Counted from the first letter of the stretch, positions 15,178 through 34,067 are shown. The stretch is 64,000 nucleotides of DNA from Candidatus Woesearchaeota archaeon (GCA_018302605.1 JAGVZN010000019.1:29803-93802), one strand, 5' to 3'. Program-made: numbers and translations. Notes: a model not told the origin generated them from the letters alone.

Positions 15178-15953
15178 AAATAACTCAGCGTCTTGGACTA
15201 AACAGAATCAATGTGAAGAAAGAGAATATTGAAACTGTAAACCAAGAAAGATTCAAAACTCAGGAGAAGAGAAACCACCACCCTGACCAATCTGAGAAGA
15301 GCAAATCTTATTTTGAACAGGATTTATTCCCCCTTTTAAAAACAGAAGAATTTATTTTCCGGGAATACTTAAGAAACAAAGAAGCAAAAATTCTTGTTGC
15401 GGGATGTGGTACGGGAAGAATTCCTTTCCACCTCCTGCGGATGGGATTCACAAAAATAGTTGCTTTTGATATCATCCCAGAAGTCATTCAGATCGCCAAG
15501 AAAATAGAACCATCGCTTGATTTCCGCGTCCTTGATGCTACTAATCTAAACGAATTCAATGCTGAATCGTTTGATCTTGTCATCTTTCCGTACAACGGAA
15601 TCGACTATATCCATCCGATAGAAAAAAGAAAAAAAGCCTTGCGCGAGATCCATCGCATTTTGAATGTGGGGGGACAATTTATCTTCAGTTCCCATAATAG
15701 CAGGCTAATCAGCTATAAAAAAATACCAGTACTTCTACGAACTCTTCTCAGCGGCTTGCTTTTCACAGGATATTATGTTAATTATGGGGAACACGGCTTC
15801 ATTATCACAAAATACAGCTCGATAGGACGAATTAAGAAAGAACTTGCTGGATGCGGATTTAAAGATATCCATGTTAAAGGCGATTTTTCTTCAACAGTCA
15901 GAAATTACGTCTCTTGTAAGTATTGTCATTACATCGCAAAAAAGGAACCATAA
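15174..15953 (+). CDS. class I SAM-dependent methyltransferase
   Basis: Motif I KILVAGCGTGRIPFHL. Starts with a 4-nt overlap on the flippase stop. Confidence 0.75.
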   Translation: MKITQRLGLNRINVKKENIETVNQERFKTQEKRNHHPDQSEKSKSYFEQDLFPLLKTEEFIFREYLRNKEAKILVAGCGTGRIPFHLLRMGFTKIVAFDIIPEVIQIAKKIEPSLDFRVLDATNLNEFNAESFDLVIFPYNGIDYIHPIEKRKKALREIHRILNVGGQFIFSSHNSRLISYKKIPVLLRTLLSGLLFTGYYVNYGEHGFIITKYSSIGRIKKELAGCGFKDIHVKGDFSSTVRNYVSCKYCHYIAKKEP

Positions 15954-15978
15954 GAAAAAGAGAGAAAAGAAAGAGCAA

Positions 15979-16836
15979 ATGAAAAACACGACTGGAAAAT
16001 TATTGATCTATTGGGACTATGAGCTTCAGCAAGGAGCTGATGTTTCTACCCAGAAGTACAAAGATGGAGTAGAAGACTATCATCAAACAGAATTTATCTT
16101 AAACTATCTTCAAGATAAGCCGATCCCCACCTGTTTCGCCGTGGTTGGAATTACAGCGGAGAGGGGAGGACTTCCGTATCATGCGCCCCAACAATTGAAG
16201 AAAATGGCCAAACTGGGGCATGAAGTGGGGAGTCACACCTATTCTCACAAAAGAATCACCCAACTAAACTTTCCGGAATTAGTCGCAGAATTACAGAAAA
16301 GCAAACAAGCCATTGAGAAAGCAAGTGGACAGAAGTGTACTGCTTTTGTTCCCCCCTGGGATAAACCACAATTCTTCTTCAATCTGGCTATCGATTTTAA
16401 ACCCGGAACTATCTTTCCAAAGAACAGTATTCTCAACAAAGAAAAAATACTTCACGCACTCCGACAGACGGGTTATAAAACATATCGCACCTGCCCTCTA
16501 ACCTCCCGCTTCGCCCTTTTTCATCTCTCCAAGCCAAAATACTCCAAAGGGATTATAGAAATACCTTGCCGTCTGAGCAACGGGTTTTCCACAGAAGCAA
16601 AGAAATTAGTGAAGAAAGCCATCTCCCAACGCGGCATCGCCGTCATTTATGCTCACCCCCGTGGACTTGCTCATCCAGGGCCACAACATAAACACAAATT
16701 TATCGAATTCATTGATTTCGTCGAGAAACAGATCGAAAGAAAAAAGCTTGAAGTTGTTCTCCCACACGATTTGCAAAGAGAATCACTTCTCAAAAAAGAT
16801 TTTCCACAGCAACCAAGAAGAATAGGGAGAGAATGA
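15979..16836 (+). CDS. polysaccharide deacetylase (CE4 / NodB homology domain)
   Basis: HTYSHKRITQLNFPEL (NodB H-[ST]-x-x-H motif). Start moved from the ORF-track 15844 to the ATG at 15979 (MKNTTGKLLIYW) to avoid overlap with the methyltransferase. Motif 1 (TFDDG) is divergent. Confidence 0.6.
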   Translation: MKNTTGKLLIYWDYELQQGADVSTQKYKDGVEDYHQTEFILNYLQDKPIPTCFAVVGITAERGGLPYHAPQQLKKMAKLGHEVGSHTYSHKRITQLNFPELVAELQKSKQAIEKASGQKCTAFVPPWDKPQFFFNLAIDFKPGTIFPKNSILNKEKILHALRQTGYKTYRTCPLTSRFALFHLSKPKYSKGIIEIPCRLSNGFSTEAKKLVKKAISQRGIAVIYAHPRGLAHPGPQHKHKFIEFIDFVEKQIERKKLEVVLPHDLQRESLLKKDFPQQPRRIGRE

Positions 16837-17885
16837 TGAACCAAGAACAGAGATTGATTACAAAACGAGAAGAGTGGGAAGAGTTACTTGCCATCTTCGA
16901 AGTTAAAGAGAATCTTTTCTTAGATTTTCAAGTGAGTGATGGTCTTCGTAACTGTGATGTAGAGGTGTTTCGCTATGTGTACTATCCAGAAAATGATGCA
17001 GAAGAGAAGCCAACTGCAATCATCCAATGGAACATTGAGATCATCAAAGTACACAAAATTCTAGGAATTGCAAGGATTGCCTGCGGCTCACGTGAGGGGA
17101 ATGGTTTTTTTCATAAAGAATTAAGTATACCAGAACAGCAAATTTATTTGCAAAAATCTCTCAGGGAAACAATCAAACGATCAAAAAGAGGAATATCTTT
17201 ACTTCTCTTGCCAGTATACATCTCAATAGTCTCTGACTGCAAACGAGATATTCTTCCGCATAGCCTCGTCGAAGAAATTTTTTCTGTAGAACTAGACCTC
17301 TCACCATCGGTATTAGAATTAGAATCAAATTTTGACAAAAAGCGTCGGAATGGGATTCGAAAAGCACAAAAAAACGGTATTAGTACGAATATTGATAGAA
17401 CTAAAGAAGGACTCTCTTTCTTTTACGATCTCAAGAAATCACAATATTGGTCTGGTGATGAGAAGACTATTTGGACAAATAGGACAAAAGAAGCGTTTGG
17501 GGCTTACCATCAACGTGCAACAACAGTTGGTAAACATCTACTCTTCATTTCAAAGTACCAAAGAAATAACGTAGCATTTGCCAGTGTCTATTCTATCGAC
17601 AGAAAATTGTTCTACAAAGAGGGTGGTCTAGATAAATCATTTCAGGAATTTCGCCCTCTCGACAGGTTATTGATGGATGTAATCATATGGGGAAAAGAAC
17701 ATGGGTATACCTCTCTTGATTTTTGCGGAGCGAATTTTGATGAGGATAATAACCCCGATGCGAGAACAAAATTTAAGTTGCAGTTTGGCGCCATCCCTAA
17801 GCGATATTATCATTACCAGAAAATAACTCTTCCTTTCGCTGGAAAGAGAACGCCGTTACTCTTTACCCGTCTCTTGACAAAGTAA
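16833..17885 (+). CDS. FemAB-family / GNAT-fold acyl(aminoacyl)transferase
   Basis: 350 aa with internal duplication typical of FemAB / BioF2-like acetyltransferase domains. Confidence 0.5.
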   Translation: MMNQEQRLITKREEWEELLAIFEVKENLFLDFQVSDGLRNCDVEVFRYVYYPENDAEEKPTAIIQWNIEIIKVHKILGIARIACGSREGNGFFHKELSIPEQQIYLQKSLRETIKRSKRGISLLLLPVYISIVSDCKRDILPHSLVEEIFSVELDLSPSVLELESNFDKKRRNGIRKAQKNGISTNIDRTKEGLSFFYDLKKSQYWSGDEKTIWTNRTKEAFGAYHQRATTVGKHLLFISKYQRNNVAFASVYSIDRKLFYKEGGLDKSFQEFRPLDRLLMDVIIWGKEHGYTSLDFCGANFDEDNNPDARTKFKLQFGAIPKRYYHYQKITLPFAGKRTPLLFTRLLTK

Positions 17886-18509
17886 AGAGACGATTTTTCC
17901 CGCAAGATACACCAAACGTTTCTCGGGGAGCAAAACTTTCCTAATTGGCTTCATCTTAACGAATTCTTCTTTCGTCAGATGATCATAATGAATTTGCTTC
18001 TTGCCGAAAGTGCTATCGACAATAGAAGGTTGTCCCAGATCGCCGCGAAAAGGGAATAGTTTGAGATGGAGATGCTCTTTTTTCTCTTGCCAGGTTGTGC
18101 ATTTGCCATAGGCCGCAACGGCCGCGCCCGTTTCACGTGTCGGTGAGACTGCTTTAAATTCTGGCTGTTCTTCGGCCATAATCATCGTCATTGCCGCATT
18201 CAGCTTGCCAAAAGCAAGACCATAATTCTTTGCAAGTTTAGGATTCCCTGCCAGTTGAGCAAAATGAGAAAAATGTCCGAAGGTCATCAGTTGTACTGTA
18301 AAATCTCGCTGAGGATCCCCCCCCGTCTGGGGGGATAATGTTGCAAACCAGCCATTGTCAATGGAATCGCCGATGCGAAAGATGACAACCGCATTATATT
18401 TTGTCCGCGTTCCGATGGGCAACATTGCTTCTTGGCACCAAACGCAATTTTCTTGGAGAGAACTGTCTTCGGCTAAGAGAATTTTTAATTGCTGTACCGT
18501 ATTATGCAT
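17856..18509 (-). CDS. HIT-superfamily (GalT-branch-like) nucleotidyl transferase/hydrolase-like protein
   Basis: N-terminal Zn-knuckle CVWC plus HLHLKL histidine motif; paralog of the divergent 18571-19206 gene. Confidence 0.45.
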   Translation of the reverse strand: MHNTVQQLKILLAEDSSLQENCVWCQEAMLPIGTRTKYNAVVIFRIGDSIDNGWFATLSPQTGGDPQRDFTVQLMTFGHFSHFAQLAGNPKLAKNYGLAFGKLNAAMTMIMAEEQPEFKAVSPTRETGAAVAAYGKCTTWQEKKEHLHLKLFPFRGDLGQPSIVDSTFGKKQIHYDHLTKEEFVKMKPIRKVLLPEKRLVYLAGKIVSLLCQETGKE

Positions 18510-18570
18510 AAATCATCTAACATCAAAAATGCCGTAACATTTATAAAAGATGTGAAAGCAAAATGTTCTT

Positions 18571-19206
18571 ATGACACTTAATGACTTGTTAGGACAAGCA
18601 ACTACAACCAGTAGCGACTGTGTCTTTTGTGATTTCTCCACAGCCGATGTCGGAGAGAAAGATAGCCGCGGCGCAGTGAAAGTATTTCAAACTGGTTCTG
18701 GTTTAGGGCAGGATTGGTATGGTATCCTCCAAACAAGTGTGATCTCCGATCCAAAGAGTGGTTTTCAACTGCTACTTGTCCCTTTAGGTCATATTCAATC
18801 CTTTGCTGAAATCGCTAAGGACATACGATTAGCAGAAAATTATGGAATTGCAACGGCACGATTGAGCTTAGCGATGCAAAGAATCCGAGAAGAAGAATAT
18901 GCCGGTACAGACACATTTACGCCCGGTCAAATCATCTATGGAAAATGTCATACTCCCCAGAACTCACAATCTCATCTTCATTTAAAACTGGATGAATTTA
19001 GTGGGGGTTTAGCACAAGCATTTCCTACAGACCGGGGATGGATCGGAAAGCCCACCCATTACATCAACGAACCGATATTTGGGATATCAATGCAAGTAAG
19101 CGATACATACGTCAGAGCACGACCAGTCACAACCGCAAAATTAGAGTTGGAACGCATCACCGCTCTAGCTGATCGGTTGATTAACTATGCTAAAAGATCA
19201 ATTTAA
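18571..19206 (+). CDS. HIT-superfamily (GalT-branch-like) nucleotidyl transferase/hydrolase-like protein
   Basis: CVFCDF plus HLHLKL motif; paralog of 17856-18509. Confidence 0.45.
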   Translation: MTLNDLLGQATTTSSDCVFCDFSTADVGEKDSRGAVKVFQTGSGLGQDWYGILQTSVISDPKSGFQLLLVPLGHIQSFAEIAKDIRLAENYGIATARLSLAMQRIREEEYAGTDTFTPGQIIYGKCHTPQNSQSHLHLKLDEFSGGLAQAFPTDRGWIGKPTHYINEPIFGISMQVSDTYVRARPVTTAKLELERITALADRLINYAKRSI

Positions 19207-20266
19207 TATATTCCTTCTCCCTTCTCTCATCAAGATAAGCATCGAAATATCCAACAACAACACGGTAATAAAACTCTCCGTTCTCCTGATTAACTTTTTC
19301 CAACATCCCCGATGCTTCCATTTTTTCACCAGGAAAAGCGAGCATACAATAATCCCGGGAATAGAAAACAATCTTGGTGACTGGAACTTTTTCTTTTCCT
19401 TCACGCACTAGGGCATTACTGATCTGGTAACAGCCTGGCCTGACTACCGAACTAAAATTATCAACTACCGTCCCTTCCACAACGGCAGGGCCCAGAGAGG
19501 TGTATTTCTCCTCTCCCCATTTGAACCAGACTTCCTCTTCTTTTTCCGCTGCAAAGATCACAAACAGACTACCCTCAAAATAACCTTCCGTTTTTCGCCT
19601 CTTCATTGAATGCAAGAATTCTTTCTCACCAGAGATTGAGAAGCGATTGCGCTTCTTATGAAACACAAGCCACTCTTCATCTGTCTTCCAATGTAACAAC
19701 GGATGGGTTGCACGTTCGAGATAAGACATCAATTTCCAGAAGTTCTCTTTACCATACACCACAATATTAATATCTGAAATCGCAGGGTTATAATGACCCA
19801 TCAAAGTAGAATACGTTATCCCGAAATCTTTGATCCTCAGACCGCTTTGGAGGAGAAATTGAGAGAAAGAAAATACCCTCAAGAGATACTGGTCCAAAGA
19901 CGCTGGTGGCATAGACATGAGTTCTTTAAAGCCCCTACGCGGGAAATAAATTCGTTCAATCTTGTCGATCGGAATCGAAAAGAAAAGACGGTTCTGATCG
20001 TGAACAGGACTAGTATACACATAATTAGGATACGCTTCGCGAAAACGAGTGATATAGGCTCTCAATTCCTCTTTATCTGCCCACATATTCAGCCGATTCA
20101 TCTTTCGTCCCATGATGAAACGATACGCAAGAGCACTGCTCTCTACAGCTGTGGTAGGAATATATTTTGGCTTAACTAAAATAGAAGAAGAAGGATGTTC
20201 ATTACCATAGACTTGGCATTGCAGACCGTCTTTAGTGGTGATAATTGACGACTCATAAAAATGCAT
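19190..20266 (-). CDS. Pol-beta-superfamily nucleotidyltransferase-like protein (paralog of the C-terminal domain of the 1087-aa fusion)
   Basis: Central motif LMGHYNPAISDINIVVYG (G-x9-S-D-I-N). N-terminal ...IITTKDGLQCQVYGNEHPSS aligns with ...LITTKEGIQCKVYATHHPSG of the fusion. Start set at ATG 20264-20266 (MHFYESS), which has a GGAGGT Shine-Dalgarno 8 nt upstream; the track start at 20335 lacks one. Confidence 0.5.
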   Translation of the reverse strand: MHFYESSIITTKDGLQCQVYGNEHPSSSILVKPKYIPTTAVESSALAYRFIMGRKMNRLNMWADKEELRAYITRFREAYPNYVYTSPVHDQNRLFFSIPIDKIERIYFPRRGFKELMSMPPASLDQYLLRVFSFSQFLLQSGLRIKDFGITYSTLMGHYNPAISDINIVVYGKENFWKLMSYLERATHPLLHWKTDEEWLVFHKKRNRFSISGEKEFLHSMKRRKTEGYFEGSLFVIFAAEKEEEVWFKWGEEKYTSLGPAVVEGTVVDNFSSVVRPGCYQISNALVREGKEKVPVTKIVFYSRDYCMLAFPGEKMEASGMLEKVNQENGEFYYRVVVGYFDAYLDERREKEYIKLIF

Positions 20267-20291
20267 TTCTTCAAACCTCCGGTTACAACAT

Positions 20292-23200
20292 TCAATCGAG
20301 CAATGCTTTAAGGTATTCTTTTTCTCCTTGTTCATTGGTATACGTATTCATATAACCAATAACTAATTGATGAAACTCACGTCCTTTTGGTGTCGTCACT
20401 TTTTCCAGCAAGCCGCAGGCTTCTACTCTCTCCCCCTCTTTTGCTTGTAAAGCAAAAGGCCGCGACCAAAATACAATGCGTTCTATCGGGACCTCCTGAT
20501 AACCGTCCATAATTCTAGAGTTGGTAATTCCATAATAGCCCGGTCTGAGGTGAGAATAATTATAATCTCTCACGACACCCTGCACAGTGACTGTAGCCAA
20601 AGGCTCGTGCTTATCTTCCCAACCATACCAACCGGCAGTTCCCATCTCAACAACAAAGATTGAGAAGACATTCCCATCAAAAAAGCCGTCATCACGCTTT
20701 CGCACCATGTTATGAACGTATTCTTCTTCCGTAAACACTTTTGATACGACTCGATCTTTATAATAGCGAGCCCAATCCTCTCTCGACTTCCATTTTAAGA
20801 GAGGGTGCTGTACCATTTCCATATGTCTCAAGACCCGCCAGCCATTTTCGACACCAAAGATCAGAATATCGATGTCTGACTTTCCTGGAGTATAATTCCC
20901 CAACAACGTAGAATGGCTTATTCCCAGATCACTGACAGAAACCCCACTCTGTAAAATAAGATTAATGATCCCTCGTGTCGCTTTTAGGTAGGGATCTAAG
21001 TCTGCATCCGGAACTTTCATTAATTGCCGTAAACCAGCGCGCGGGTCATGAGTTGTTGCAATATCTGATTCAGGCACGGCAAAGAACCATTGCTGGTGAT
21101 GGGGGCAAGAATAGATTAATTGAGGAAAATTCCGTTCTACGATTGCCAGATTTTCTTTAACACTGTCTTTATCATTAAAGAGATTGAAACGAAATACACT
21201 TTTCTGAAAGAGAAAGCGTTTTTTTAGTTTCCTAAACGAATCTCCTCCCTGGAGTAAATCCTCAGGGATATATTTTGGTTTGATAATGACCCGTCCAGAT
21301 GGGTGGTGAGTAGCGTAGACTTTACATTGAATGCCTTCTTTAGTAGTAATTAACGATGATTCGGGATGGCGGGGGTAATGAACATCAATCGCTTTCCTCG
21401 GTTGAACAATCTCCATCTGTGCAGAAAGGTTATAGTTACTTTCCAATTCTTTCACTCTCTCATTAAAAATTGTGAGACACGATTGATGATAATCTGTTCT
21501 ACCAGCAGTAAGATTATCGACAAAACTGCGGACTTTCAGTAACTTTCCCTGAAGACGTATTTTTCTCTCTTGTTCCGGAAGTCCTAGCACATATTCCAGA
21601 TCCATCAAATCAGAAAATCGATCAAGAATCTCTGTGTTTACCACTTCACGCGGCGCGCCAATCAGGCGGGAGATATGTTCCCGATAGCGGGGGGGGAGGA
21701 GGGTGGGATGTGGATCACGGGAAATGGTCTTATCCTCCGTCAAGAGAGAAAGATTTTGGATAACCGTCGGATAACGCTGCAGAAAATGCTGTTGTGATAA
21801 ACTCTGAACATCAATCGAAGTATCTTCAATAACATCGTGTAACGCGGCAGTCAGGAGAGCTGAAACTTCCCTTTCACCGCAGGTGTAAAGCAATCTGACA
21901 AGATAGATCGAGTGAAAAACTAAAGGAGTGATACCATCATTCCTTTTCTGATTGCCAAATGCCGTTACGAGAAAATGAAAAACGTCTTTAAAGAAATCTT
22001 GCTGTTCACCAAAAGAATGCGCAACCTCATCCGCAGCTCGACTAACATCTTTCTGAAACAGTTCTTTAACCCGAACATAATCTGTACGTACCTCTTTTAA
22101 GATAGAATCTGATCCTAAAGCAATACGTGATTTTTCATCTAAGACCCGTGGAGGGATACTCGAAATCTCCTCTTCTCCAAAGCAATTGATCGGCTCAACA
22201 ACAATATCTTCAGGAACGGCAACATTCAAAGCAGTTAATATTGTTGGTGCGACCTGACGAATATCCACATCATTCATTAGTCCTCGTTTCTTAATTTCGG
22301 GTCCGTTAATGATAAAGAGGCCTTGCCGCGAATGCCCGGCGCTGTCCGCACCAATGGCTGTATGCCAGGAGTACAGACCTTCCTGCCCCAGATCAGGATT
22401 AGATGCCCAGCGTAGATCATCAAAATAGATCGTCAGATCGGGACATTCAGGATGAGAGGCATTCTGATAAATATCCTCGGCAGAGTAGACTTTGGTGTTA
22501 AGAGGATTGCCCTTATCATCGGGTATCTTTCGTATCTTCTCTGCAATTTCATCACGGATGTTTCTCCATTTATCTCCTGCTTTCTCTTTATTGATCTGGA
22601 TTCTCCCGTTATATGCCCCGCCTCCCCACGCTAAACTTCGTTCGCGATCAACAAGTTCCATCTTAAAACGCGTGCTCTTGCTAAGATCAACACTTTCTTT
22701 CAAGACGAGGTAGCCTTCTTTAATGAGCCAGTTGTTAATGTTGATCTTGCCTTCCTGTTTGATCATCCCATGATCTGATGCAACGATAACGGTGGTATCC
22801 TGCGGTAGAAGCTGTAGTACTTCCCCCAGTTTCTGATCAATATAAATGTAAAAATCTCTAATTGCATTTGCATGAGGAGAATTCACGATAAACCGACGAT
22901 GGCCTTCATCAAAATGGCGCCAGAGCATATGCTGCAGCCGGTCTGTTCCTAACATCACGGCCATACAGAAATTCCATTGTTTATGGGTGATCAAGTCTTT
23001 GAGGAGCGAGACCTGCATATCAGTCATCTCCATTGCTTTTTTGACAAGCTCTGCCGGATCAAGACTCTTATGGCCGCCGAGACCAACGGCAACATCAAAG
23101 AACCCCTCGGGATTGCCTAGTGCTTTGATCTTCTCTTTCAAATGTTCTGGATACGCACAGTTGCTTTCAATTCCTGGGGTCATGAAATCAGTGACGATAC

Positions 23201-23555
23201 AGCCGGGAAATGTCGTGACGGGATAGGAAAGGGGCACATAGAGGGCGATGCTCTTCTGATGTTCTTCTCCAATGATGTCCCAGATCAATCTTGCGTTATT
23301 GTTTTTGGAACTTACCAAACGGTAATCGCCTTGTTCGTCTTTGTAAGTATAATTAAATACCCCGATCTCGCTGGGATCTTTTCCCGAGATCATCGCATTC
23401 CAAGCAACAATCGTTGAAGGGGGGATGGTACTGTTCATCCGGGCATATGTCCCATTCTGCATCAGTTTCTTGATATTTGGCAGGAGATCATTCCAGCGTT
23501 CGAATACTAATTCGGGAACGCCGCCATCAATTCCAAATAAGAAGACTTTTCCCAT
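20292..23555 (-). CDS. three-domain fusion: alkaline-phosphatase-family phosphodiesterase/nucleotide pyrophosphatase + SpoT-type HD hydrolase domain + Pol-beta NTase-like domain
   Basis: N-terminal domain: VFLFGIDGG...STIPPSTIVAWNAMISG...VASDHGM (AP superfamily GxDG, T-P-x-S/T nucleophile, DHG). Middle: ITPLVFHSIYLV...LLTAALHDVIEDT (RelA/SpoT HD signature, near nt 21815-21860). C-terminal: LLGNYTPGKSDIDILIFG (near nt 20862-20890) plus sequence paralogous to the 19190-20266 protein. Confidence 0.7.
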   Translation of the reverse strand: MGKVFLFGIDGGVPELVFERWNDLLPNIKKLMQNGTYARMNSTIPPSTIVAWNAMISGKDPSEIGVFNYTYKDEQGDYRLVSSKNNNARLIWDIIGEEHQKSIALYVPLSYPVTTFPGCIVTDFMTPGIESNCAYPEHLKEKIKALGNPEGFFDVAVGLGGHKSLDPAELVKKAMEMTDMQVSLLKDLITHKQWNFCMAVMLGTDRLQHMLWRHFDEGHRRFIVNSPHANAIRDFYIYIDQKLGEVLQLLPQDTTVIVASDHGMIKQEGKININNWLIKEGYLVLKESVDLSKSTRFKMELVDRERSLAWGGGAYNGRIQINKEKAGDKWRNIRDEIAEKIRKIPDDKGNPLNTKVYSAEDIYQNASHPECPDLTIYFDDLRWASNPDLGQEGLYSWHTAIGADSAGHSRQGLFIINGPEIKKRGLMNDVDIRQVAPTILTALNVAVPEDIVVEPINCFGEEEISSIPPRVLDEKSRIALGSDSILKEVRTDYVRVKELFQKDVSRAADEVAHSFGEQQDFFKDVFHFLVTAFGNQKRNDGITPLVFHSIYLVRLLYTCGEREVSALLTAALHDVIEDTSIDVQSLSQQHFLQRYPTVIQNLSLLTEDKTISRDPHPTLLPPRYREHISRLIGAPREVVNTEILDRFSDLMDLEYVLGLPEQERKIRLQGKLLKVRSFVDNLTAGRTDYHQSCLTIFNERVKELESNYNLSAQMEIVQPRKAIDVHYPRHPESSLITTKEGIQCKVYATHHPSGRVIIKPKYIPEDLLQGGDSFRKLKKRFLFQKSVFRFNLFNDKDSVKENLAIVERNFPQLIYSCPHHQQWFFAVPESDIATTHDPRAGLRQLMKVPDADLDPYLKATRGIINLILQSGVSVSDLGISHSTLLGNYTPGKSDIDILIFGVENGWRVLRHMEMVQHPLLKWKSREDWARYYKDRVVSKVFTEEEYVHNMVRKRDDGFFDGNVFSIFVVEMGTAGWYGWEDKHEPLATVTVQGVVRDYNYSHLRPGYYGITNSRIMDGYQEVPIERIVFWSRPFALQAKEGERVEACGLLEKVTTPKGREFHQLVIGYMNTYTNEQGEKEYLKALLD

Positions 23556-23702
23556 TATTGATTTACACCCATAGTATCTGTATGGTAGATAATGCCTTTT
23601 AAAGATTGTGAAATGAGAACAAACAAGATGGCAACTCCAGCGGAGAGTATATTATACCAAAAATCCATAGATTTCGAACAAAAATCTTTGGATTCTGGTA
23701 TA

Positions 23703-23740
23703 TACCAAAAAAATTAGGTTCGAAACCTAATTATTTTTTG
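23703..23740 (-). terminator. bidirectional hairpin terminator
   Basis: Perfect palindrome aattaggtt-cga-aacctaatt (23712-23732) flanked by T7 on the minus strand (revcomp of 23703-23711) and T6 on the plus strand (23734-23739); directly downstream of the 23756-24115 minus-strand gene. Confidence 0.55.
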
Positions 23741-23755
23741 GGATACGACAGATCA

Positions 23756-24115
23756 TTAACCCAAATAACCTAATTCTTCCAGACGTTTCTTAACATCTTC
23801 CTCGTCAGCCTCGCTATAGGCTCGGGAGGATTTTGTGTTAATATTTATAGAGGAAGAACTATTCCCAGCTCTTTCAAAAGCGAGTCTTTCCAGATACTCA
23901 TTTAAAATTCGTTCGACACATTGATCAACCGTAAGTCCCGCCGCCTGCGCAACGGCTCCCACCTTCTGTCGGACTTCATCTGAAAGTAGAATTACCCGTT
24001 CAGAAGAGTGAATTACCTGACAGAGAAGGAAAAGCTGGCGAACTAGCTCATCAGAAGATAATTTCCTCTCTACAGCCATCGTCTTTAACTGTTCAACAAA
24101 TGCATGTTCATCCAT
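23756..24115 (-). CDS. small RHH-like (CopG/Arc-type) protein with acidic C-terminal tail ending ...RLEELGYLG
   Basis: 119 aa. RVILLSDEVRQKVGAVAQAAGLTVDQCVERILNEYL fits the ribbon-helix-helix pattern. The last ~12 residues share a motif with the C-terminus of the adjacent 24127-25668 protein. Confidence 0.45.
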   Translation of the reverse strand: MDEHAFVEQLKTMAVERKLSSDELVRQLFLLCQVIHSSERVILLSDEVRQKVGAVAQAAGLTVDQCVERILNEYLERLAFERAGNSSSSININTKSSRAYSEADEEDVKKRLEELGYLG

Positions 24116-24126
24116 ATTTCGTTCAC

Positions 24127-25668
24127 CTACCCCAAATAACCTAAATCTTCCAGACGCTGGATCACTTCCTGTTCACCTTTCTTTTCATCAAAATCACTCT
24201 TTTCCACTTGTTTTTCCGTCTGGTTTTTCTCCTCAAAAAAGCGTAAGATTATCTCATGAATGTCCATCAAAGAGTACTCCTCTTTTCCCAACGATTTCTG
24301 AGAAGAGATCAAGATTCCGTCGCTGTGATGGTCACCCGATTTAATCTTCCCTTCAGTTACTTTGTTAAAGAGTTGTGGGCAACGTACTGCGGTAATTGGC
24401 CAATGATGAAATGACCGATCAAACACCACTAGATCTGGAGCATCTTCAATGAAAGGCCCGTGAAAAAGCTCCTCTTTCTTTCTGATCACGAGTTCCCCAC
24501 CCGGGATCTTAATTTTCCGAAGAGACTCAATGACCTCTTCCCTGACATGATGATACTCCTCTTTTGTAACAGAACCTTGTTCTTCGCTATCATCATTAAT
24601 GTAAATGAACCCTTGATCAATCGCCGAGAACGCTTTTGTTTTCTTAAAATCAATCATTCCTTGACGAATCGCAGTATACCAACTTATTCCGTTGGCATCA
24701 GGGATAAGATCGCCAAGACCACTGCCTCTAAACCGAGAATAAACCAGTTTTTTGAGATGAAGAGTAGATAGAATTTTCTCCACTGACGTCTTATTGATTC
24801 CAAAGAAAGATAAGACTTTCTGTGGGCCTTTGCTGCGACCATGAACTGCTAAAAAACCTTGATCTTCCAACCACTTGTTTAACGCAAACGTACCGTGTAG
24901 GCTGGTAAACCCATGATCGCTGACAATCATTACTTCTACATCTTCCCCGACGACTTTCAAGAAGCTACCAATCAACGAATCGAGATAGGCAAAATAATCA
25001 TAAATCTTCTCCTCATATTTGTTACTAGAATAAAGAGGACTGGAATGATCAATATACTTTATCATGTTGTGAAGAAGAGAATCAGTGTTCGTCTCCACCA
25101 ACATGAACAGGTCTGGTTTTTGCTTAAGATATAACTTTGTCGCAATCGAAAAGCGCAACTCCGAAAGATGAAAGATCCGCCTAAGAAAATCATCATCATT
25201 ATTCCAACTCACACTGAACGCAAAATCTTTTAATTCTAATTCTATCTCTTTCTTAAGCTCGGCTGGATAAAGAAAATCGGATGCGCCCGTGGGGGTAAAT
25301 AACCCTGACATCATGAAACCATTCAACGGTTTAACGGGATACGTCCCGGGGATATTCATGATCCCACACTTCACATCAAGACCCTCCCAAAAAGGAACAA
25401 AATTATGAACCGGGCGGATAGTTTTATCATATCCTTTCTTAGAGAAAAGAGTGAAACAACCCAATTCCCCCGGATTCTTCCCCGAAACTAAACTCAACCA
25501 CGCAGGAATACTGACCGGAGGAGTCACGCTCTTTAACGTAGCGAAAAGACCATGATCGATGACTTTTTTGATCGTTGGGATCTTTTCTTGCGCCAGTAAT
25601 TCTTTAATCAGCCAGGGACTTACCCCATCTAGACCAATAATAACAAGTTTAGGCATTATCTTAACCAA
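24127..25668 (-). CDS. alkaline-phosphatase-superfamily type I phosphodiesterase / nucleotide pyrophosphatase family protein
   Basis: PKLVIIGLDGVSPW ... SVTPPVSIPAWLSLVSG ... MIVSDHGF; C-terminal ...IQRLEDLGYLG. Confidence 0.75.
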   Translation of the reverse strand: MVKIMPKLVIIGLDGVSPWLIKELLAQEKIPTIKKVIDHGLFATLKSVTPPVSIPAWLSLVSGKNPGELGCFTLFSKKGYDKTIRPVHNFVPFWEGLDVKCGIMNIPGTYPVKPLNGFMMSGLFTPTGASDFLYPAELKKEIELELKDFAFSVSWNNDDDFLRRIFHLSELRFSIATKLYLKQKPDLFMLVETNTDSLLHNMIKYIDHSSPLYSSNKYEEKIYDYFAYLDSLIGSFLKVVGEDVEVMIVSDHGFTSLHGTFALNKWLEDQGFLAVHGRSKGPQKVLSFFGINKTSVEKILSTLHLKKLVYSRFRGSGLGDLIPDANGISWYTAIRQGMIDFKKTKAFSAIDQGFIYINDDSEEQGSVTKEEYHHVREEVIESLRKIKIPGGELVIRKKEELFHGPFIEDAPDLVVFDRSFHHWPITAVRCPQLFNKVTEGKIKSGDHHSDGILISSQKSLGKEEYSLMDIHEIILRFFEEKNQTEKQVEKSDFDEKKGEQEVIQRLEDLGYLG

Positions 25669-25789
25669 AAAACGACTTCTTATAAAGGTTGTTAAAATAG
25701 ATTCATTTTAGATCACAGAACATTTTATCACAGAAAAATATGTACATTGTTTCAGAAGATATTTAAAAAGAGGTCATTATTCTGCAGGG

Positions 25790-27232
25790 ATGGCTTTAGG
25801 CACAAAACAAAGCAAGAATGAGACTCTCCAAAAGAAGAAAATAATCTATATCGGCGGTGATTCTGGAGGGAATGAACTTATGTTCAGAATCTCCCAAGAA
25901 GTCGAACAAAGACACAATACTACTTCTTTCTATATCTCCACGTCAAAGATTGGTTCAGCTAACTTTAAAGAACTAGGGGTCAAAAAAGAACAGCTCTATG
26001 AGATTGACCACCTTAATTTTAAGCTAACCAAAAACCCTGACAAGAACTATCTACATCATGCCGAAGTGAAATACGACTTTCGGATTTGGGATATCTGGCA
26101 AGTTGCCGCCAAAAGAAAGAAGAGCCGCCTAAAGTTAAGCGAGGATAGCATTCTTTCACTGATGGAAAGTATTTGTAAAAAAGCGGAATGGATCGCGCAA
26201 CACGTTAAACCAGACTATGCTATCCTTTGCTGTGTTGCTGGCTTCCACTTAGTAATGATGATCAGGATTTTTGAAAAGTACGGAATTGAAGTCCTCGACT
26301 TCTCCAACCCACGATTACCAGAACGATTTTGTTTTGCGAATGAGCTCGCGAGCAATTTTCCTCTTCTCAATAGGATATATAGTGAAAGAAAACAGAAAGG
26401 TCTTACCCCTTCCGAGATTAAAGAAAGCAAAGAGATCATTCAAAGATTCAAAGAAGAACATTTTAAGCCATCCGACTCCACAAGAGTGAAAGAATCGTGG
26501 CCACAAGTTGTACGAAAATATCAACGCTATCTCAAGATTATCTACCAAAGAAAAAAGATCCCAAACTTTGTCAATAACCTATATTATCCTATAAAAGAAA
26601 AAGTGATGCGCAGGTTTATGTCTAGATTTGAGAAGCCGGTTACAGGTGAAAAATATGTTCTCTTTTTTTTGCATGTGCAACCAGAAGCTTCAACGTCCAT
26701 TATGGGAAAGTGGTATGAGAACCAGCTGAATCTTATTGAAAATATTGTCCGCAGCTTGCCATGCGATTATAAGCTCTATGTTAAAGAACATGTCTGGAAC
26801 TTCTCTACAAGGCCTCGTGATTATCATCATGAGATCAAAAAATTTCCCAGCGTAAGACTGATCACTCCATTTTCTTCGTCATATGATCTTATCGCCAATA
26901 GTTCAGCGATCGTCACAATTACCGGAACCGTCGGCTGGGAAGGGATACTACTCCAGAAACCAGTGATAACTTTCGGAAACGTCTTTTATAATGTCTTTGA
27001 TCAAGTACAAAAAGTAGAAAAGATTGAAGAATTACCTGCGATCATAAAAAGAAGAATTGACACCGTTGTTGATCTTGACCAAACATTGACGTTTGTCAGT
27101 TCTGTTCTTGCTTCTTCGTTTCCCGGCTTGGGGATGATCCCTGCCGACTGCCAGAATAGATCGCTTGAGCCAAAAAATATCAAGCTCCTTGTCGACGGCC
27201 TTGAAAAACACGTAGCATATCTTCGGCTTTAG
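25790..27232 (+). CDS. putative capsule-polysaccharide-biosynthesis-like glycosyltransferase (KpsC/KpsS-like fold?)
   Basis: 480 aa soluble protein. C-terminal half LFFLHVQPEASTS...LYVKEHVWN...ITGTVGWEG...KPVITFGNVFYN is reminiscent of Capsule_synth-type transferases. Weak call. Confidence 0.35.
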   Translation: MALGTKQSKNETLQKKKIIYIGGDSGGNELMFRISQEVEQRHNTTSFYISTSKIGSANFKELGVKKEQLYEIDHLNFKLTKNPDKNYLHHAEVKYDFRIWDIWQVAAKRKKSRLKLSEDSILSLMESICKKAEWIAQHVKPDYAILCCVAGFHLVMMIRIFEKYGIEVLDFSNPRLPERFCFANELASNFPLLNRIYSERKQKGLTPSEIKESKEIIQRFKEEHFKPSDSTRVKESWPQVVRKYQRYLKIIYQRKKIPNFVNNLYYPIKEKVMRRFMSRFEKPVTGEKYVLFFLHVQPEASTSIMGKWYENQLNLIENIVRSLPCDYKLYVKEHVWNFSTRPRDYHHEIKKFPSVRLITPFSSSYDLIANSSAIVTITGTVGWEGILLQKPVITFGNVFYNVFDQVQKVEKIEELPAIIKRRIDTVVDLDQTLTFVSSVLASSFPGLGMIPADCQNRSLEPKNIKLLVDGLEKHVAYLRL

Positions 27233-27293
27233 ATGTATTTAGATTTAATAGGAAGCAATAGTCATAGAACCATTTATTAGAAATACAAAAAAC

Positions 27294-28415
27294 ATGACAT
27301 CAATTATCTATTGTAAGAAGTGTGTACAGCCAAATACGCGGCCAAATATCAAATTCGATGACGAAGGTATTTGCCCGGCATGCCAATACGTAGAGAAAAT
27401 CCCAAATATTGATTGGAAAGCAAGAAAAGAAGAACTAAAAGAGATCATTAAAACGTGTAAGAGAGAAAATGTTTCCGGATACGATTGTATCATCGGAGTC
27501 AGCGGTGGAAAAGATAGTACACGCCAAGTGATGTATGTAAAAGAATTAGGTCTTAAACCGCTACTCGTTTCCTGTACCTACCCACCTGAACAGCAATCAG
27601 AGAGAGGAGCGCATAATCTCGGCAACATGATCTCCCTTGGATTTGATACGATCACGATCAGCCCTGCTCCTGAGACCTGGAAAAAGATGATGAAACAGGG
27701 TTTCTTCAAGTACGGAAACATCTTCAAATCAACAGAAATGCCCTTGTTTGCGAGTGTCCCGAAAGTTGCCATTGCCTATCATATTCCTCTCATCCTGTGG
27801 GGAGAGAATCCAGCAACACAAATCGGAGAACTGGGAGCCGGATCTCTAGATTGGAATGGAAATAACCTTAAGCGGGCCAATACCATTGCCAGCGGACCCA
27901 GTGTCCTTTTTCAGGAGACTATTTCAAAAAAAGATACTTTGTGGTATCATTATCCTGAAGACTGGGAGATGGAAGCCGCAAACTTGCAGATTGTCTACCT
28001 CGGATATTTTATGGGTGATTGGAGCAAGACAAATAATGCGAATTTTTCCATTGCGCACGGGATCGAGATACGCGATGATACTTCAGAGGAAATGGGAGCG
28101 TTGCATCCTTTCGAATCTCTAGACGAAGATTTTGTTTTTGTCAACCAGATGATGAAATATCTTAAATTTGGATTTGGAAAAGTCACAGATGAGGTCTGTG
28201 AACTTATTCGCGCCGATAAAATGACCCGAGAAGAAGGAATCGAACTAGTTAGAAAATATGAGGGGAAATGTGCTCGAAAATATATCATTCAATTTTGTAA
28301 ATACCTGGAGATCACGGAAGAGCAGTTCTGGAAAGTTGCCGAATCTTTTCGAAATCGCGAGATCTGGCACCAAGATGGAAAAAGAAACTGGAAACTGAAA
28401 AATCAAATATTGTAA
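27294..28415 (+). CDS. N-acetyl sugar amidotransferase (WbuX / PseA / AglX-like, PP-loop ATP pyrophosphatase)
   Basis: N-terminal Zn-ribbon CKKCVQPNTRPNIKFDDEGICPACQY then PP-loop YDCIIGVSGGKDSTRQV. Confidence 0.8.
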   Translation: MTSIIYCKKCVQPNTRPNIKFDDEGICPACQYVEKIPNIDWKARKEELKEIIKTCKRENVSGYDCIIGVSGGKDSTRQVMYVKELGLKPLLVSCTYPPEQQSERGAHNLGNMISLGFDTITISPAPETWKKMMKQGFFKYGNIFKSTEMPLFASVPKVAIAYHIPLILWGENPATQIGELGAGSLDWNGNNLKRANTIASGPSVLFQETISKKDTLWYHYPEDWEMEAANLQIVYLGYFMGDWSKTNNANFSIAHGIEIRDDTSEEMGALHPFESLDEDFVFVNQMMKYLKFGFGKVTDEVCELIRADKMTREEGIELVRKYEGKCARKYIIQFCKYLEITEEQFWKVAESFRNREIWHQDGKRNWKLKNQIL

Positions 28416-28420
28416 GAAAA

Positions 28421-29101
28421 ATGGAAGAAGAACAAAACAAAAACAGCACAAAAGATACCAAGAAGCACGATATTTTAGTGATAGATTATCATGTGGGGAA
28501 CCATCGTTCAGTCCTTAATGCCCTTTCTCTTCTGGGATATCACTACAAAGTTTCCAGCGAGAAAGAGGAGATCGCAAAAGCACCAGCATACATTCTGCCC
28601 GGGGTTGGAGCGTTTAGTGAGGCAATGACTAATCTTCAGAATCTGGGAATTATTGATACACTCAAAGAGCAAATTCTTAACCATAAAAAGCCTATACTGG
28701 GAATCTGTTTGGGGATGCAAGTATTGGCAGAAAGTTCAACAGAAAATGGTTTCCATAAAGGTCTCGGCATCATCAAAGGGAGTGTGATGAGGATCGATTC
28801 TCACAAAGATATTAAAATACCCCACGTAGGATGGAATAATCTATCCATCCATCAAAAAGACCCGCTATTCACAAGAACAGATGAGGAAGCACACTTTTAT
28901 TTTGATCACAGTTATCATATTGCCTGTGATCATTCCATTATTTCCGCGACGTGTACCCATGGAAGCGAGATCACCGCAGCAATCCAATCAGACAACATAT
29001 TTGGAGTGCAATTCCACCCAGAAAAAAGCCAAAAAAATGGATTGCTCTTACTGAGAGGCTTTTTTAATTACATCAAACAGAGGGAAAGTAAAAATGCTTA
29101 A
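28421..29101 (+). CDS. HisH-like class I glutamine amidotransferase (WbuY / AglY-like)
   Basis: ILVIDYHVGNHRSV ... LPGVGAFSEAM ... ILGICLGMQVLAE (GATase triad region). Confidence 0.8.
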   Translation: MEEEQNKNSTKDTKKHDILVIDYHVGNHRSVLNALSLLGYHYKVSSEKEEIAKAPAYILPGVGAFSEAMTNLQNLGIIDTLKEQILNHKKPILGICLGMQVLAESSTENGFHKGLGIIKGSVMRIDSHKDIKIPHVGWNNLSIHQKDPLFTRTDEEAHFYFDHSYHIACDHSIISATCTHGSEITAAIQSDNIFGVQFHPEKSQKNGLLLLRGFFNYIKQRESKNA

Positions 29102-29978
29102 ACATCGATTGGTTGCCTGCCTCACGCTTAAAGAAAGAATAATTGTGCAGAGTATTGGCTTCGAAAAATACCTGCCTATCGGAAGACCAGAGATTACTAT
29201 AGAATTTCTCAACAATTGGGGCATTGATGAGATTGTGGTACTAGACATAGATGCCACTCGAGAAAGCAGGCTTGTGGATATCGAACTCGTACAGAGAATT
29301 TCAAAGAAGTGTTTTGTCCCATTAACGGTTGGAGGAGGAATAACCACTGTTGAAGAAATGAAAGAGCTTATTCGCCAAGGTGCAGACAAGATTTGTATCA
29401 ATACCTCGGCAATCCAAAATCCTCCATTGATCAGAGAAGCATCACACGTATTAGGAAGTCAGTGTGTTGTCGTTTCTCTCGATGTCAAAAAGAATGGCCG
29501 TGGGGAATACGAAATATTTACTCACTCCGGAAAGAAAGCAACAGGGATAAATCCTCGAGATTTCGCCCAGAAAGCCGAAGCACTTGGGGCCGGAGAGATA
29601 TTTATCACTTCCATCACTCGAGATGGTTCGAAACAAGGATACGATCTTGAACTGATCAAAGAGATCTCTCGTGCGGTCTCCATTCCCGTTGTAGCCTGCG
29701 GGGGTGTAGGAAACCCATCTCATTTTGTCGAAGCAATCAGAGAAAGTACGGTCAGTGCCGTGGCCGCAGGAAATTATTTTCATTTTACGGAACACAGCCC
29801 GATGATTACAAAAGCATTTATCAGCAAATGCCCAGATGCAAAAATAAGATTTGACACTTATGCAGACTACCGCCACTTTTCGTTTATGAATGAGAAAATG
29901 ACCCATCGGATCGATAAGAAAGAAGACCAATATTTGAAAGATACCCGGTTCAAATATCATCCAAAGGAGGTCATATGA
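29094..29978 (+). CDS. HisF-like cyclase/synthase subunit (WbuZ / AglZ-like)
   Basis: DEIVVLDIDAT ... LTVGGGITTVEEM ... VVACGGVGNPSHF (HisF TIM-barrel phosphate-binding motifs). Confidence 0.8.
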   Translation: MLKHRLVACLTLKERIIVQSIGFEKYLPIGRPEITIEFLNNWGIDEIVVLDIDATRESRLVDIELVQRISKKCFVPLTVGGGITTVEEMKELIRQGADKICINTSAIQNPPLIREASHVLGSQCVVVSLDVKKNGRGEYEIFTHSGKKATGINPRDFAQKAEALGAGEIFITSITRDGSKQGYDLELIKEISRAVSIPVVACGGVGNPSHFVEAIRESTVSAVAAGNYFHFTEHSPMITKAFISKCPDAKIRFDTYADYRHFSFMNEKMTHRIDKKEDQYLKDTRFKYHPKEVI

Positions 29979-31255: not shown

Positions 31256-31263
31256 TACCAAAA

Positions 31264-34062: not shown

Positions 34063-34067
34063 TGCAA

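Follow-up and report, generated by a model that had tools for sequence, protein, structure and literature searches.

A three-domain fusion protein of a woesearchaeon as Rosetta stone for a conserved operon and candidate sulfation module of DPANN archaea

The window analysed here is a 64-kb stretch of DNA from Candidatus Woesearchaeota archaeon. It contains a gene coding for one protein with three consecutive enzyme-like parts, an alkaline phosphatase-like domain (AP), an HD domain and a nucleotidyltransferase module (N1), accompanied by genes for a paralogue of N1 (N2), two HIT-superfamily proteins (HIT-A and HIT-B), a small ribbon-helix-helix (RHH)-like protein and a second AP protein (AP2); their positions are given in Table 1. 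An earlier note on this DNA had described the protein as a fusion of a phosphodiesterase, a SpoT-like HD domain and a nucleotidyltransferase. This division proved correct, the parts being an AP domain of NPP type, a divergent HD domain of Mesh1/SpoT type and a Pol-beta nucleotidyltransferase (NTase) module ending in an OB fold, and all three groups of motifs named there lie at the positions given when the ORF is translated. No tRNAs and no Rfam families were found in the window, and APS kinase, PHP, sulfotransferase, sulfatase and pyruvate kinase are absent from it according to tblastn and Pfam.

Table 1. Features around the fusion gene (positions counted from the first nucleotide of the window)
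Feature	Position	Strand	Remarks
HIT-A, HIT-superfamily protein	17856..18509	-	elsewhere follows N2 or is fused to N2
HIT-B, second HIT-superfamily paralogue (CxxC...H...HLHLK)	18571..19206	+	29% identity to HIT-A, 9e-34
N2, N1 paralogue	19190..20335	-	BLASTP 5e-102, 38% identity to N1
AP-HD-N1 fusion ORF, 1087 aa	20292..23555	-	single uninterrupted ORF, ATG start, stop codon included
N1 module, aa 729-1087	20295..21371	-	N-terminal beta subdomain, Pol-beta NTase core and OB fold
N1 C-terminal OB fold, about aa 980-1070	20346-20618	-	
HD domain, aa 482-715, Mesh1/SpoT (HD_4) type	21411..22112	-	family matches and catalytic residues
AP domain, aa 1-455, NPP/PF01663 type	22191..23555	-	PF01663 match, profile search
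Small ribbon-helix-helix-like protein, ends ...RLEELGYLG	23756..24115	-	weak RHH and RelB-like matches
AP2, second PF01663 protein	24127..25668	-	PF01663, 1.5e-31

The first domain is a predicted enzyme of the alkaline phosphatase superfamily, assigned by Pfam to the NPP-type family PF01663 (Phosphodiest; aa 4-385, E=8.8e-36; score 124.6 bits, cut-off 23). The motifs GIDGG (aa 8-12), TIPPST (aa 43-48) and ASDHG (aa 259-263) are present in its N-terminal part, as had been noticed. In alignment, T48 takes the position of the nucleophilic threonine of snake-venom ENPP and D10 that of an ENPP aspartate. Putative metal ligands are D10, D205, H209, D261, H262 and H408, the metal site of each residue being our assumption modelled on NPP structures. 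These residues and T48 are invariant in five full-length fusion proteins; across 30 AP proteins the ligands, T48 excepted, are invariant or nearly so, and AP2-type members have serine at the position of T48. A profile of the domain matches ENPP4, PhnA, PafA, ENPP1-3 and Xac NPP at 1e-8 to 1e-6. The AP2 protein of the window is 23% identical to the AP domain of the fusion, has serine in place of the nucleophilic threonine and ends with ...RLEDLGYLG. The RHH-like gene lies directly upstream of the fusion; proteins of 81-98 aa are likewise encoded upstream of AP in 12 loci, they share its C-terminal tail, and one of them is fused into a longer ORF of 223 aa.

The HD signature FHSIYLV...ALHDVIEDT, also recognized previously, corresponds to aa 547-579 (nt 21819-21917). 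The HD domain matches spoT_relA at 1.8e-4 and HDDC3 at 0.0067; its score with PF13328 (HD_4) is 15.7 bits, the cut-off being 27.2, and 22 of its 39 close homologues match the same model at E<=0.01 (best 7e-09). When a profile was compared with the PDB, Mesh1, Lmo0812, HDDC3, Rel/SpoT and a (p)ppApp hydrolase were retrieved (best 5e-05), and outside the Mesh1/SpoT family only two marginal matches appeared (E 0.3-0.5). Residues R538, D540, H548, H573, D574, E577, D578, D645 and R646 do not vary among 39 HD sequences and align to the Mesh1/HDDC3 catalytic set (R-x-D, H, HD, ED, D-R).

The NTase motif claimed for the C-terminal part, GNYTPGKSDIDILIFG, was located at aa 886-901 (nt 20853-20900). 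It belongs to a longer segment, ISHSTLLGNYTPGKSDIDILIFG (aa 879-901), conforming to the Pol-beta pattern hG[GS]-x9-13-Dh[DE]h with a carboxylate in a later strand; the core consists of HS...G...SDID at aa 881-896 and of a third carboxylate, E970, at the end of strand FSIFVVE. Apart from a weak NTP_transf_2 match (PF01909, 17.7 bits, cut-off 21), Pfam returned nothing for the module, no PDB entry was matched by sequence with either a single N sequence or a 46-sequence profile, and a Foldseek search of the N model against the PDB gave only OB-fold fragments (best E 0.026). By fold, the NTase core resembles TENT2, TUT4/7, Pol X and cGLR, not RelP/RelQ, and the OB fold is nearest to those of SSB, RPA and anticodon domains of aminoacyl-tRNA synthetases (aaRS), i.e. 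of the type that binds single-stranded DNA or RNA. N1 is a member of the Pol-beta nucleotidyltransferase superfamily, and its activity is predicted. The analogies with RSH, GlnD and CCA enzymes drawn in the earlier note did not hold up: the module matches no RelA/SpoT synthetase, GlnD or CCA-enzyme family, it includes an OB fold and it probably requires a paralogous partner. This partner, N2, is encoded by the next gene and reads SDIN where N1 reads SDID, and the difference is conserved, with SDxD in 52 of 53 N1 genes and SDxN in 52 of 53 genes at the second position. Translation of N2 probably starts at M24 (nt 20266), judging from homologues that begin with MxF[YP]ES. The N family is a large archaeal group annotated only as "predicted nucleotidyltransferase" and has no Pfam model. 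Its distant members occur in Vulcanisaeta, Korarchaeota and Methanococcus voltae; since the M. voltae locus (L004) contains no glycan or sulfate genes, the family at large may serve other functions as well.

HIT-A and HIT-B possess a HIT fold and an H-x-H motif of histidine triad type, and neither matches any HIT entry of Pfam or the PDB by sequence. The HIT partner is predicted, with moderate confidence, to fold like Ap4A phosphorylase (pLDDT 46-60 around the HxH strand). In HIT-B, whose gene is co-located in the operon described below, C22, C25, H79, H146 and H148 are invariant.

AP, HD and N are found as separate genes in other genomes and a G8 run (21689-21696) lies within the fusion ORF, so that joining of two or three genes by an assembly or frameshift error had to be considered. 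Two homopolymeric regions had been suspected. The G8 tract is the sole long run; the other region, 22621-22630, has no run of at least five. The G8 tract encodes Pro-Pro of an LPPRY motif, all five residues of which are invariant in the five full-length fusion proteins; in stand-alone HD proteins, too, L, P, R and Y (L-P-x-R-Y) do not vary, and the reading frame is conserved on both flanks of the tract. Full-length, colinear orthologues (P0001, P0002, P0004 and P0005) are 86, 85, 57 and 57% identical to the fusion, and loci L007 and L011 also code for AP-HD-N1. Intermediate forms, AP|HD-N and AP-N, exist as well, the combinations seen being N alone, HD alone, HD-N, AP-N, AP-HD-N and N2-HIT. 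Because the colinear full-length fusion is shared by at least five other, independent assemblies, an artefact is ruled out and we give it practically no credence. The architecture is rare: only a handful of AP-HD-N1 proteins was found by a database search among 5.8 billion proteins. The protein is a genuine Rosetta-stone fusion: its three enzymes are, in DPANN archaea, usually the products of separate adjacent genes.

The operon that the fusion brings together as a Rosetta stone, [AP]-N1-N2-HIT-[PHP or HD], was found in 72 genome loci, always within surface-glycan clusters and with tight or overlapping AP|N1|N2|HIT|PHP junctions. For the PHP partner, matches were obtained to RNase AM and to pAp phosphatases of the Cv1693 family (2yb1, 2e-18). 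HD and PHP exclude each other: among 39 loci with flanks of at least 4 kb, none has both, 7 have HD only, 29 PHP only and 3 neither (Fisher p=8e-6). AP is anticorrelated with APS kinase (3/18/13/5, p=3e-4), these tests overstating independence because the loci are phylogenetically related. AP as a stand-in for a classical sulfotransferase was not supported by distribution, the trend being not significant (1/20/4/14, p=0.16). In a variant of the operon with a single N gene, prolyl-tRNA synthetase is encoded between N and PHP, and a weakly matching CDP-alcohol phosphatidyltransferase-like membrane protein is encoded nearby in 22 loci. A second AP gene is present near the operon in many loci.

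Several neighbours connect the operon with sulfate activation. In 24 loci a gene for APS kinase, which matches adenylyl-sulfate kinase of the PDB at 3e-39, stands beside the operon or is joined to the PHP gene of the latter; within 6 kb it is present in 0 of 7 loci of HD type. Genes for Sulfotransfer_2 proteins directly adjoin N1 or HD where AP is absent, and genes of the PF00884 sulfatase family adjoin the operon in 12 loci and pyruvate kinase in 6. Sat (PF01747) and CysD/CysN had no match in the fusion protein, the window or the 72 loci; no ATP sulfurylase was matched among the 2106 ORFs of these loci, a copy elsewhere in the same genomes being possible. Bacterial relatives of the AP domain, 35-45% identical to it, are fused to sulfate-activation enzymes. 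In one of them, P0017, the domain order is AP-PK-ATP sulfurylase-APS kinase-PHP, which is the order of the DPANN operon with N1-N2-HIT replacing ATP sulfurylase. One glycan cluster (L079) codes for AP-APS kinase, AP, ATP sulfurylase and TauE and has no classical sulfotransferase. A literature search on COG1665, COG3379 and sulfotransferases of the AP family yielded nothing relevant.

We propose that the operon is a PAPS-type sulfation module without ATP sulfurylase, a reading drawn entirely from gene context, to which we assign an even chance. Against it speak the anticorrelation of AP with APS kinase, the absence of APS kinase near the loci of HD type, and the window itself, in which APS kinase, PHP, sulfotransferase, sulfatase and pyruvate kinase are all missing. 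N1 would be the catalytic Pol-beta nucleotidyltransferase subunit (SDID...E), working with its pseudo-symmetric paralogue N2 (SDIN). Together with the Ap4A-phosphorylase-like HIT protein they would stand in for ATP sulfurylase and make APS from ATP and sulfate by transfer of AMP, with the P-O-S bond formed by one among the three; APS is known as adenylyl donor or acceptor for HIT proteins (PMC4613722). The APS would be 3'-phosphorylated by canonical APS kinase, encoded beside the operon in the 24 other loci, not in the window. HD would recycle the spent nucleotide, pAp, by removal of its 3'-(pyro)phosphate, in place of the COG0613-type PHP phosphatase of most genomes, as the mutually exclusive distribution suggests; because HD fills the slot of this pAp-phosphatase-type PHP, pAp, not ppGpp, is its likely substrate. 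At the weakest step, AP may transfer the sulfuryl group to a glycan or its precursor, or may hydrolyse PPi or nucleotide by-products to pull the reaction. NPP-type active sites normally attack phosphorus rather than sulfur, which counts against sulfuryl transfer. For the pulling of the reaction there is precedent in a documented ATP sulfurylase-pyrophosphatase fusion (PMC2275785). The fusion would keep activation, use and recycling together. The pppGpp, NDP-sugars and dinucleoside polyphosphates formerly suggested for assays are less likely substrates than APS, PAPS and pAp, judging from the operon flanks in 72 genomes. It had been imagined that one protein could make, trim and hydrolyse a nucleotide adduct. 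The idea fits in so far as several nucleotide-handling activities are joined in one chain; that of a stand-alone machine was not borne out, the fusion corresponding to three adjacent operon genes and probably working with N2 and HIT encoded alongside.

Other functions were weighed against sulfation. The most serious of them, though still improbable, is phosphodiester decoration of glycans, resembling that of teichoic acids. N1/N2 would then be a phosphotransferase with an NTase fold like that of LicD and fukutin, supplied with an alcohol in CDP- or NDP-activated form; HIT would serve as phosphorylase or transferase for NDP-X and AP as phosphotransferase or phosphodiesterase, and a terminal phosphate would be taken off by HD or PHP. 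Such chemistry is established for AP-superfamily and NTase-fold enzymes elsewhere, the operon always lies inside glycan clusters, the CDP-alcohol phosphatidyltransferase-like protein is found near it in 22 loci, and the IspD/NTP_transferase-like enzymes, two Zn-ADH and ribulose-phosphate 3-epimerase of the window could make CDP-alditol. These CDP-alditol genes, however, are specific to the window and are not conserved partners of the operon, and the N module has no LicD match. Moreover, phosphodiester decoration leaves unexplained why APS kinase and PHP-APS kinase fusions belong to the operon, why sulfotransferases adjoin it and why AP relatives are fused to ATP sulfurylase and APS kinase.

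Somewhat less probable still is a system for processing or repair of RNA or tRNA ends. NTase and OB fold would then add nucleotides to RNA, HD would remove 2',3'-cyclic or 3'-phosphate as in bacterial CCA enzymes, PHP would be an RNase AM-like 5'-3' exonuclease, HIT an aprataxin-like de-adenylylase and AP an end phosphatase. The prolyl-tRNA synthetase of the single-N variant speaks for this, as do the closeness of the OB fold to SSB, RPA and aaRS anticodon domains and of the NTase core to TENT2, TUT4/7 and Pol X, and the best match of the PHP partner, a 5'-3' exoribonuclease. It may be noted against sulfation that the OB fold of N and this PDB match of PHP also suit work on RNA. An RSH-like alarmone enzyme, whose NTase-like module would make a (p)ppGpp- or (p)ppApp-type nucleotide for HD to degrade, is very unlikely. 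HD matches only Mesh1/SpoT/Rel and (p)ppApp hydrolases, and in long RSH proteins, too, an NTase-fold domain comes after HD; yet the RelA_SpoT synthetase (PF04607) has no match after HD in the fusion protein, and the alarmone reading was rejected because there is no synthetase domain and HD can be replaced by PHP.

If the operon is a sulfation module, it would bring functions to the large archaeal family of "predicted nucleotidyltransferases", to a divergent branch of SpoT/Mesh1 hydrolases and to COG3379-type AP proteins, which are widespread and in bacteria are fused with enzymes of sulfate activation, the AP, HD and N parts being tied together by the window fusion as their Rosetta stone. It would also hint at sulfated surface glycans in DPANN archaea, whose cells live attached to those of a host. 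To our knowledge, only two kinds of sulfate-activating enzymes exist, Sat and CysDN. An operon that has APS kinase, pAp phosphatase and sulfotransferases, never ATP sulfurylase, but an NTase pair and a HIT protein, is therefore a testable candidate for a third route. A bolder version remains doubtful in our view: that the DxD/DxN heterodimer of N1/N2 with HIT might form a third class of sulfate-activating enzymes unrelated to Sat and CysDN, that PF01663 AP might represent a new cytoplasmic class for sulfuryl transfer, and that the window protein might be a self-contained enzyme for activation, use and recycling, with a SpoT-type HD recruited as pAp phosphatase.

Among solved structures, those of ENPP1-7, Xac NPP and the phosphonoacetate hydrolase PhnA are the best relatives of the AP domain, with which they have the threonine nucleophile and the two-metal ligand pattern in common; the relationship is remote, E being 1e-8 to 1e-6 even when a profile is used. 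ENPPs hydrolyse nucleotides extracellularly, whereas the AP domain appears to be cytoplasmic, no signal peptide being visible, and is tied to sulfate activation. The HD domain shares R-x-D...H...HD..ED...D-R with RSH and small alarmone hydrolases (Mesh1/HDDC3, PF13328). Hydrolases of Mesh1/SpoT type take 3'-pyrophosphate off a nucleoside 5'-phosphate, and Mesh1 also takes 2'-phosphate off NADPH. The window HD domain differs from Mesh1/HDDC3 in scoring under the Pfam threshold and in an additional C-terminal helical region of ~100 aa, and the whole protein differs from RelA/SpoT homologues in lacking the RelA_SpoT synthetase domain. Hydrolysis of pAp, the function proposed for HD, is that of CysQ and of the COG0613 PHP phosphatase (Cv1693, 2yb1), to whose folds the HD fold is unrelated; for an HD_4 domain this activity is our proposal. 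The closest HIT systems are Ap4A phosphorylase (Rv2613c, 3ano), the GalT branch and the HIT proteins that use APS, Fhit, Hint4 and DcpS; the HIT motif of the window is HxHxK, in contrast to HxHxH or HxHxQ of known HIT proteins, and, unlike known HIT enzymes, proteins of this type are fused to N2 in some genomes.

Class II CCA-adding enzyme and GlnD also combine a Pol-beta NTase and an HD hydrolase in one polypeptide. In the window protein, the order is reversed, HD preceding NTase, there is no sequence match to either of them, the NTase has its own beta subdomain and OB fold and probably requires a DxN paralogue, and the genomic context is one of glycan and sulfate genes. The putative bacterial PAPS "factories" of P0017 type resemble the window protein at the N-terminus, where both have a PF01663 AP domain from one subfamily (35-45% identity). 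In P0017, AP is followed by activation enzymes and finally by a pAp-type phosphatase, a layout to which that of the window protein may be likened, with N1 in place of ATP sulfurylase (PF01747) and APS kinase and HD_4 where P0017 has PHP. P0017, bifunctional PAPS synthases and, by our proposal, the window protein have in common that several steps of a pathway are carried on one chain.

The reverse-strand ORF 20292..23555 is a single unbroken frame of 1087 aa in the ORF listing, and it contains every one of the three motif groups (AP, HD and NTase) that the earlier note had read in it. The same note considered a frameshift or assembly artefact possible. Such an artefact is excluded by colinear full-length proteins of 86, 85, 57 and 57% identity and by the recurrence of the AP-HD-N1 fusion in loci L007 and L011. 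The sole long homopolymer in the ORF, G8 at 21689-21696, codes for the Pro-Pro of LPPRY, all five residues of which are invariant across the five full-length proteins, as are L, P, R and Y in the stand-alone HD proteins.

The N-terminal part, an NPP-type alkaline-phosphatase domain (AP), is matched by PF01663 over aa 4-385 (Pfam, E=8.8e-36, well over threshold), with GIDGG, TIPPST and ASDHG lying within aa 8-263. D10 and T48 line up with the metal-binding Asp and nucleophile Thr of a snake-venom ENPP, and a profile built from 30 sequences of this AP subfamily matches ENPP4, phosphonoacetate hydrolase, PafA, ENPP1-3 and Xac NPP at 1e-8 to 1e-6. As single sequences, the other two domains score under curated thresholds (HD: spoT_relA 1.8e-4, HD_4 15.7 bits; NTase: NTP_transf_2 17.7 bits), and both were therefore examined further. 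The HD domain, with its FHS...ALHDVIEDT signature at aa 547-579 (nt 21819-21917), has 46 homologues of ~238 aa that occur as separate proteins. A profile of 39 of them matches in the PDB almost only Mesh1, HDDC3, Lmo0812, the hydrolase domains of Rel/SpoT and a (p)ppApp hydrolase (best 5e-05); of the 39 sequences, 22 are hit by PF13328 (best 7e-09), and R538-x-D540, H548, H573-D574, E577-D578 and D645-R646 are invariant in the alignment. This domain is probably an active, divergent hydrolase of the SpoT/Mesh1 type.

The C-terminal N module combines a Pol-beta NTase (motif GNYTPGKSDIDILIFG, aa 886-901, nt 20853-20900) with an OB fold resembling those of nucleic-acid binders. DPANN archaea encode over 200 homologues of ~356 aa as stand-alone proteins; no Pfam domain was found in them, and some bear the label 'predicted nucleotidyltransferase'. 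In 1.84 billion representatives, a profile search picked up 918 relatives, extending to Thermoproteota, Korarchaeota and Methanococcus. Among them is P0379 (505 aa), a distant family member whose fused N-terminal region looks like bacterial HPPK (folK-type pyrophosphokinase: RVYLSLGSNLGDR...), which suggests other roles for the wider N family outside DPANN. The motif is SDID in N1 of the window and SDIN in its paralogue N2, the next gene. In 52 of 53 N gene pairs the first is SDxD and the second SDxN, a pattern that makes N1 and N2 look like one catalytic and one altered subunit. The listed N2 ORF shares 44 nt with the 3' end of the fusion gene; since homologues begin MxF(Y/P)ES, its true start is probably M24 (nt 20266), 25 nt past the fusion's stop codon.

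Catalytic motifs are intact in all three domains. The fusion protein belongs to the AP/NPP and Pol-beta NTase superfamilies and is a probable, divergent HD_4 member. Neither of the known sulfate adenylyltransferase families includes it, and it is none of the RSH, GlnD and CCA enzymes to which it had been likened.

The fusion is a Rosetta stone for the parts of an operon, which are met in every combination. HD-N proteins (~620 aa, 55% identity across fusion aa 482-1085), AP-N proteins (~815 aa) and fusions of N2 with the HIT-superfamily partner (HIT) occur, and AP, HD, N, N2 and HIT are also all found as separate genes. When one genome was scanned per species, 72 loci were obtained, related to one another so that counts are not independent, and nearly all from DPANN (Woese-, Nano-, Aenigmat- and Iainarchaeota). 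HMMs made from our alignments show [AP]-N1-N2-HIT-[PHP] as the order that recurs in them, with genes abutting or overlapping. A literature search on the component families found nothing. In L005 (12441-14879, +), L006 and L012, an 812-aa protein unites N2, a HIT domain and an additional stretch in which HAD-like motifs are weakly recognisable (DLNGTL, GDTFGDSQG; Pfam HAD E=0.028); next come a PQ-loop membrane protein of 87 aa and PHP. A variant in L066-L073 (e.g. L071:9986-13000) contains just one N gene (35-40% identity), lacks N2 and HIT, and carries a prolyl-tRNA synthetase gene between N and PHP, often with pyruvate kinase upstream and sulfatase-family genes downstream.

The surroundings are always those of glycan biosynthesis (glycosyltransferases, flippases, sugar epimerases/dehydratases, aminotransferases), and the partners specific to the operon suggest a link with sulfate. 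In 52 loci HIT is followed by a PHP-domain protein of 289 aa; among solved structures its relatives are RNase AM and the Cv1693-type 3',5'-bisphosphonucleotide (pAp) phosphatase, the best match being an exoribonuclease. Canonical APS kinase (PDB adenylyl-sulfate kinases, 3e-39) is found in 24 loci, after PHP, fused to it, or divergent upstream of N1. Sulfotransfer_2 genes directly adjoin N1 or HD where the locus is without AP, L001 has a weak Sulfotransfer_1/3 match, and PF00884 sulfatase-family genes and pyruvate kinase are adjacent in 12 and 6 loci. ATP sulfurylase had no match in the 2106 ORFs of the operon loci; its gene may lie in other parts of these genomes. APS kinase, PHP, sulfotransferase, sulfatase and pyruvate kinase were not found in the 64-kb window.

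Pol-beta NTases and HIT enzymes both transfer AMP. Because of this, and because HIT proteins are known to use APS (PMC4613722), N1, N2 and HIT would together adenylylate sulfate. APS kinase would then make PAPS, a transferase would consume it, HD or PHP would hydrolyse the resulting pAp, and pyruvate kinase would regenerate ATP. pAp is the inhibitory by-product of PAPS-dependent sulfation, and HD-type and PHP-type enzymes both dephosphorylate a nucleoside 5'-phosphate at the 3' (or 2') position of its ribose. No locus has both of them within 6 kb of its N genes (both 0, HD only 7, PHP only 29, neither 3; Fisher p=8e-6 without phylogenetic correction, over 39 related loci flanked by 4 kb or more on both sides). 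The simplest reading of these facts is that HD stands in for PHP as the pAp-clearing phosphatase. No APS kinase was found nearby in any of the seven HD-type loci.

The role of AP is the least certain part of the mechanism. It could be the enzyme that uses the sulfuryl group, because it occupies the sulfotransferase's position beside N1, each locus has several AP paralogues, and clusters such as L079 offer no other candidate. Alternatively, AP could pull the unfavourable activation step by hydrolysing PPi, since it is repeatedly fused to the PPi-releasing enzyme and ATP sulfurylase-pyrophosphatase fusions provide a precedent (PMC2275785). In its nearest further relatives (35-45% identity) the AP domain has ATP sulfurylase, APS kinase, pyruvate kinase, PHP or HD as fusion partners. 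Near the operon, an anticorrelation exists between AP genes and APS kinase genes (both 3, AP only 18, APS kinase only 13, neither 5; p=3e-4, 39 loci with full flanks), which may reflect phylogenetic structure or a different 3'-phosphate handling in AP-type systems. The glycan cluster of L079/L080 (GCA_037025425.1, JBAIHM010000040.1) contains TauE, an AP-APS kinase fusion, a second AP, ATP sulfurylase, a third AP, a class-V aminotransferase and a flippase, with no recognisable classical sulfotransferase; it would make a good independent test bed for the idea that activated sulfate is used by PF01663 proteins.

The window is one large surface-glycan island throughout (1..64000), also with two flippases and two PMT-family transferases; no tRNA or Rfam family was found in it. 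ORFs 2558..3172, 6716..7690, 7725..8441, 27294..28415 and 29975..31255 had no Pfam match at E<=0.05, nor had 57714..58307 at E<=0.001; these six encode 197-426 aa. A C-terminal tail ...(K/R)xRLxxLGYL(D/G) is shared by the small RHH-like protein upstream of AP, some second AP proteins (AP2) and some neighbouring sulfatase-family proteins, also in L008, L009, L014, L015, L019, L026, L028, L030, L032, L039, L051, L053, L061, L068, L069 and L071. The tail has the look of a docking or sorting peptide common to these proteins, and we know of no description of it.

Genes of the operon and of the surrounding glycan island in the window
Feature	Position	Strand	Remark
Small paralogue, CxxC...H...HLHLK	17856..18509	-	
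Small paralogue, CxxC...H...HLHLK	18571..19206	+	
N2	19190..20335	-	38% identity to N1
Small RHH-like protein	23756..24115	-	tail-bearing
AP2, second AP protein	24127..25668	-	tail-bearing
HisH/HisF-like pair	28421..29978		
CBS-epimerase fusion	34068..35471		
DegT-type aminotransferase-methyltransferase fusion	35449..37392		one of four DegT-type genes in window
NeuB-like synthase	37669..39819		long N-terminal extension
CTP_transf_3-SDR fusion	43690..45255		
LPG_synthase_TM-methyltransferase fusion	51617..53356		
B12-radical-SAM proteins (two)	5183..6628, 59907..61457		

We rate the system as a sulfation pathway partly assembled from unrelated enzymes, with a reasonable chance that a new class of sulfate-activating enzyme is hidden in it. 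Closest to the fusion protein in logic are uncharacterised bacterial fusions of AP, pyruvate kinase, ATP sulfurylase, APS kinase and PHP, the order seen in protein P0017. AP, pyruvate kinase, APS kinase and PHP are common to P0017 and the DPANN operon; when these shared parts are aligned, N1-N2-HIT of the operon takes the place held in P0017 by ATP sulfurylase.
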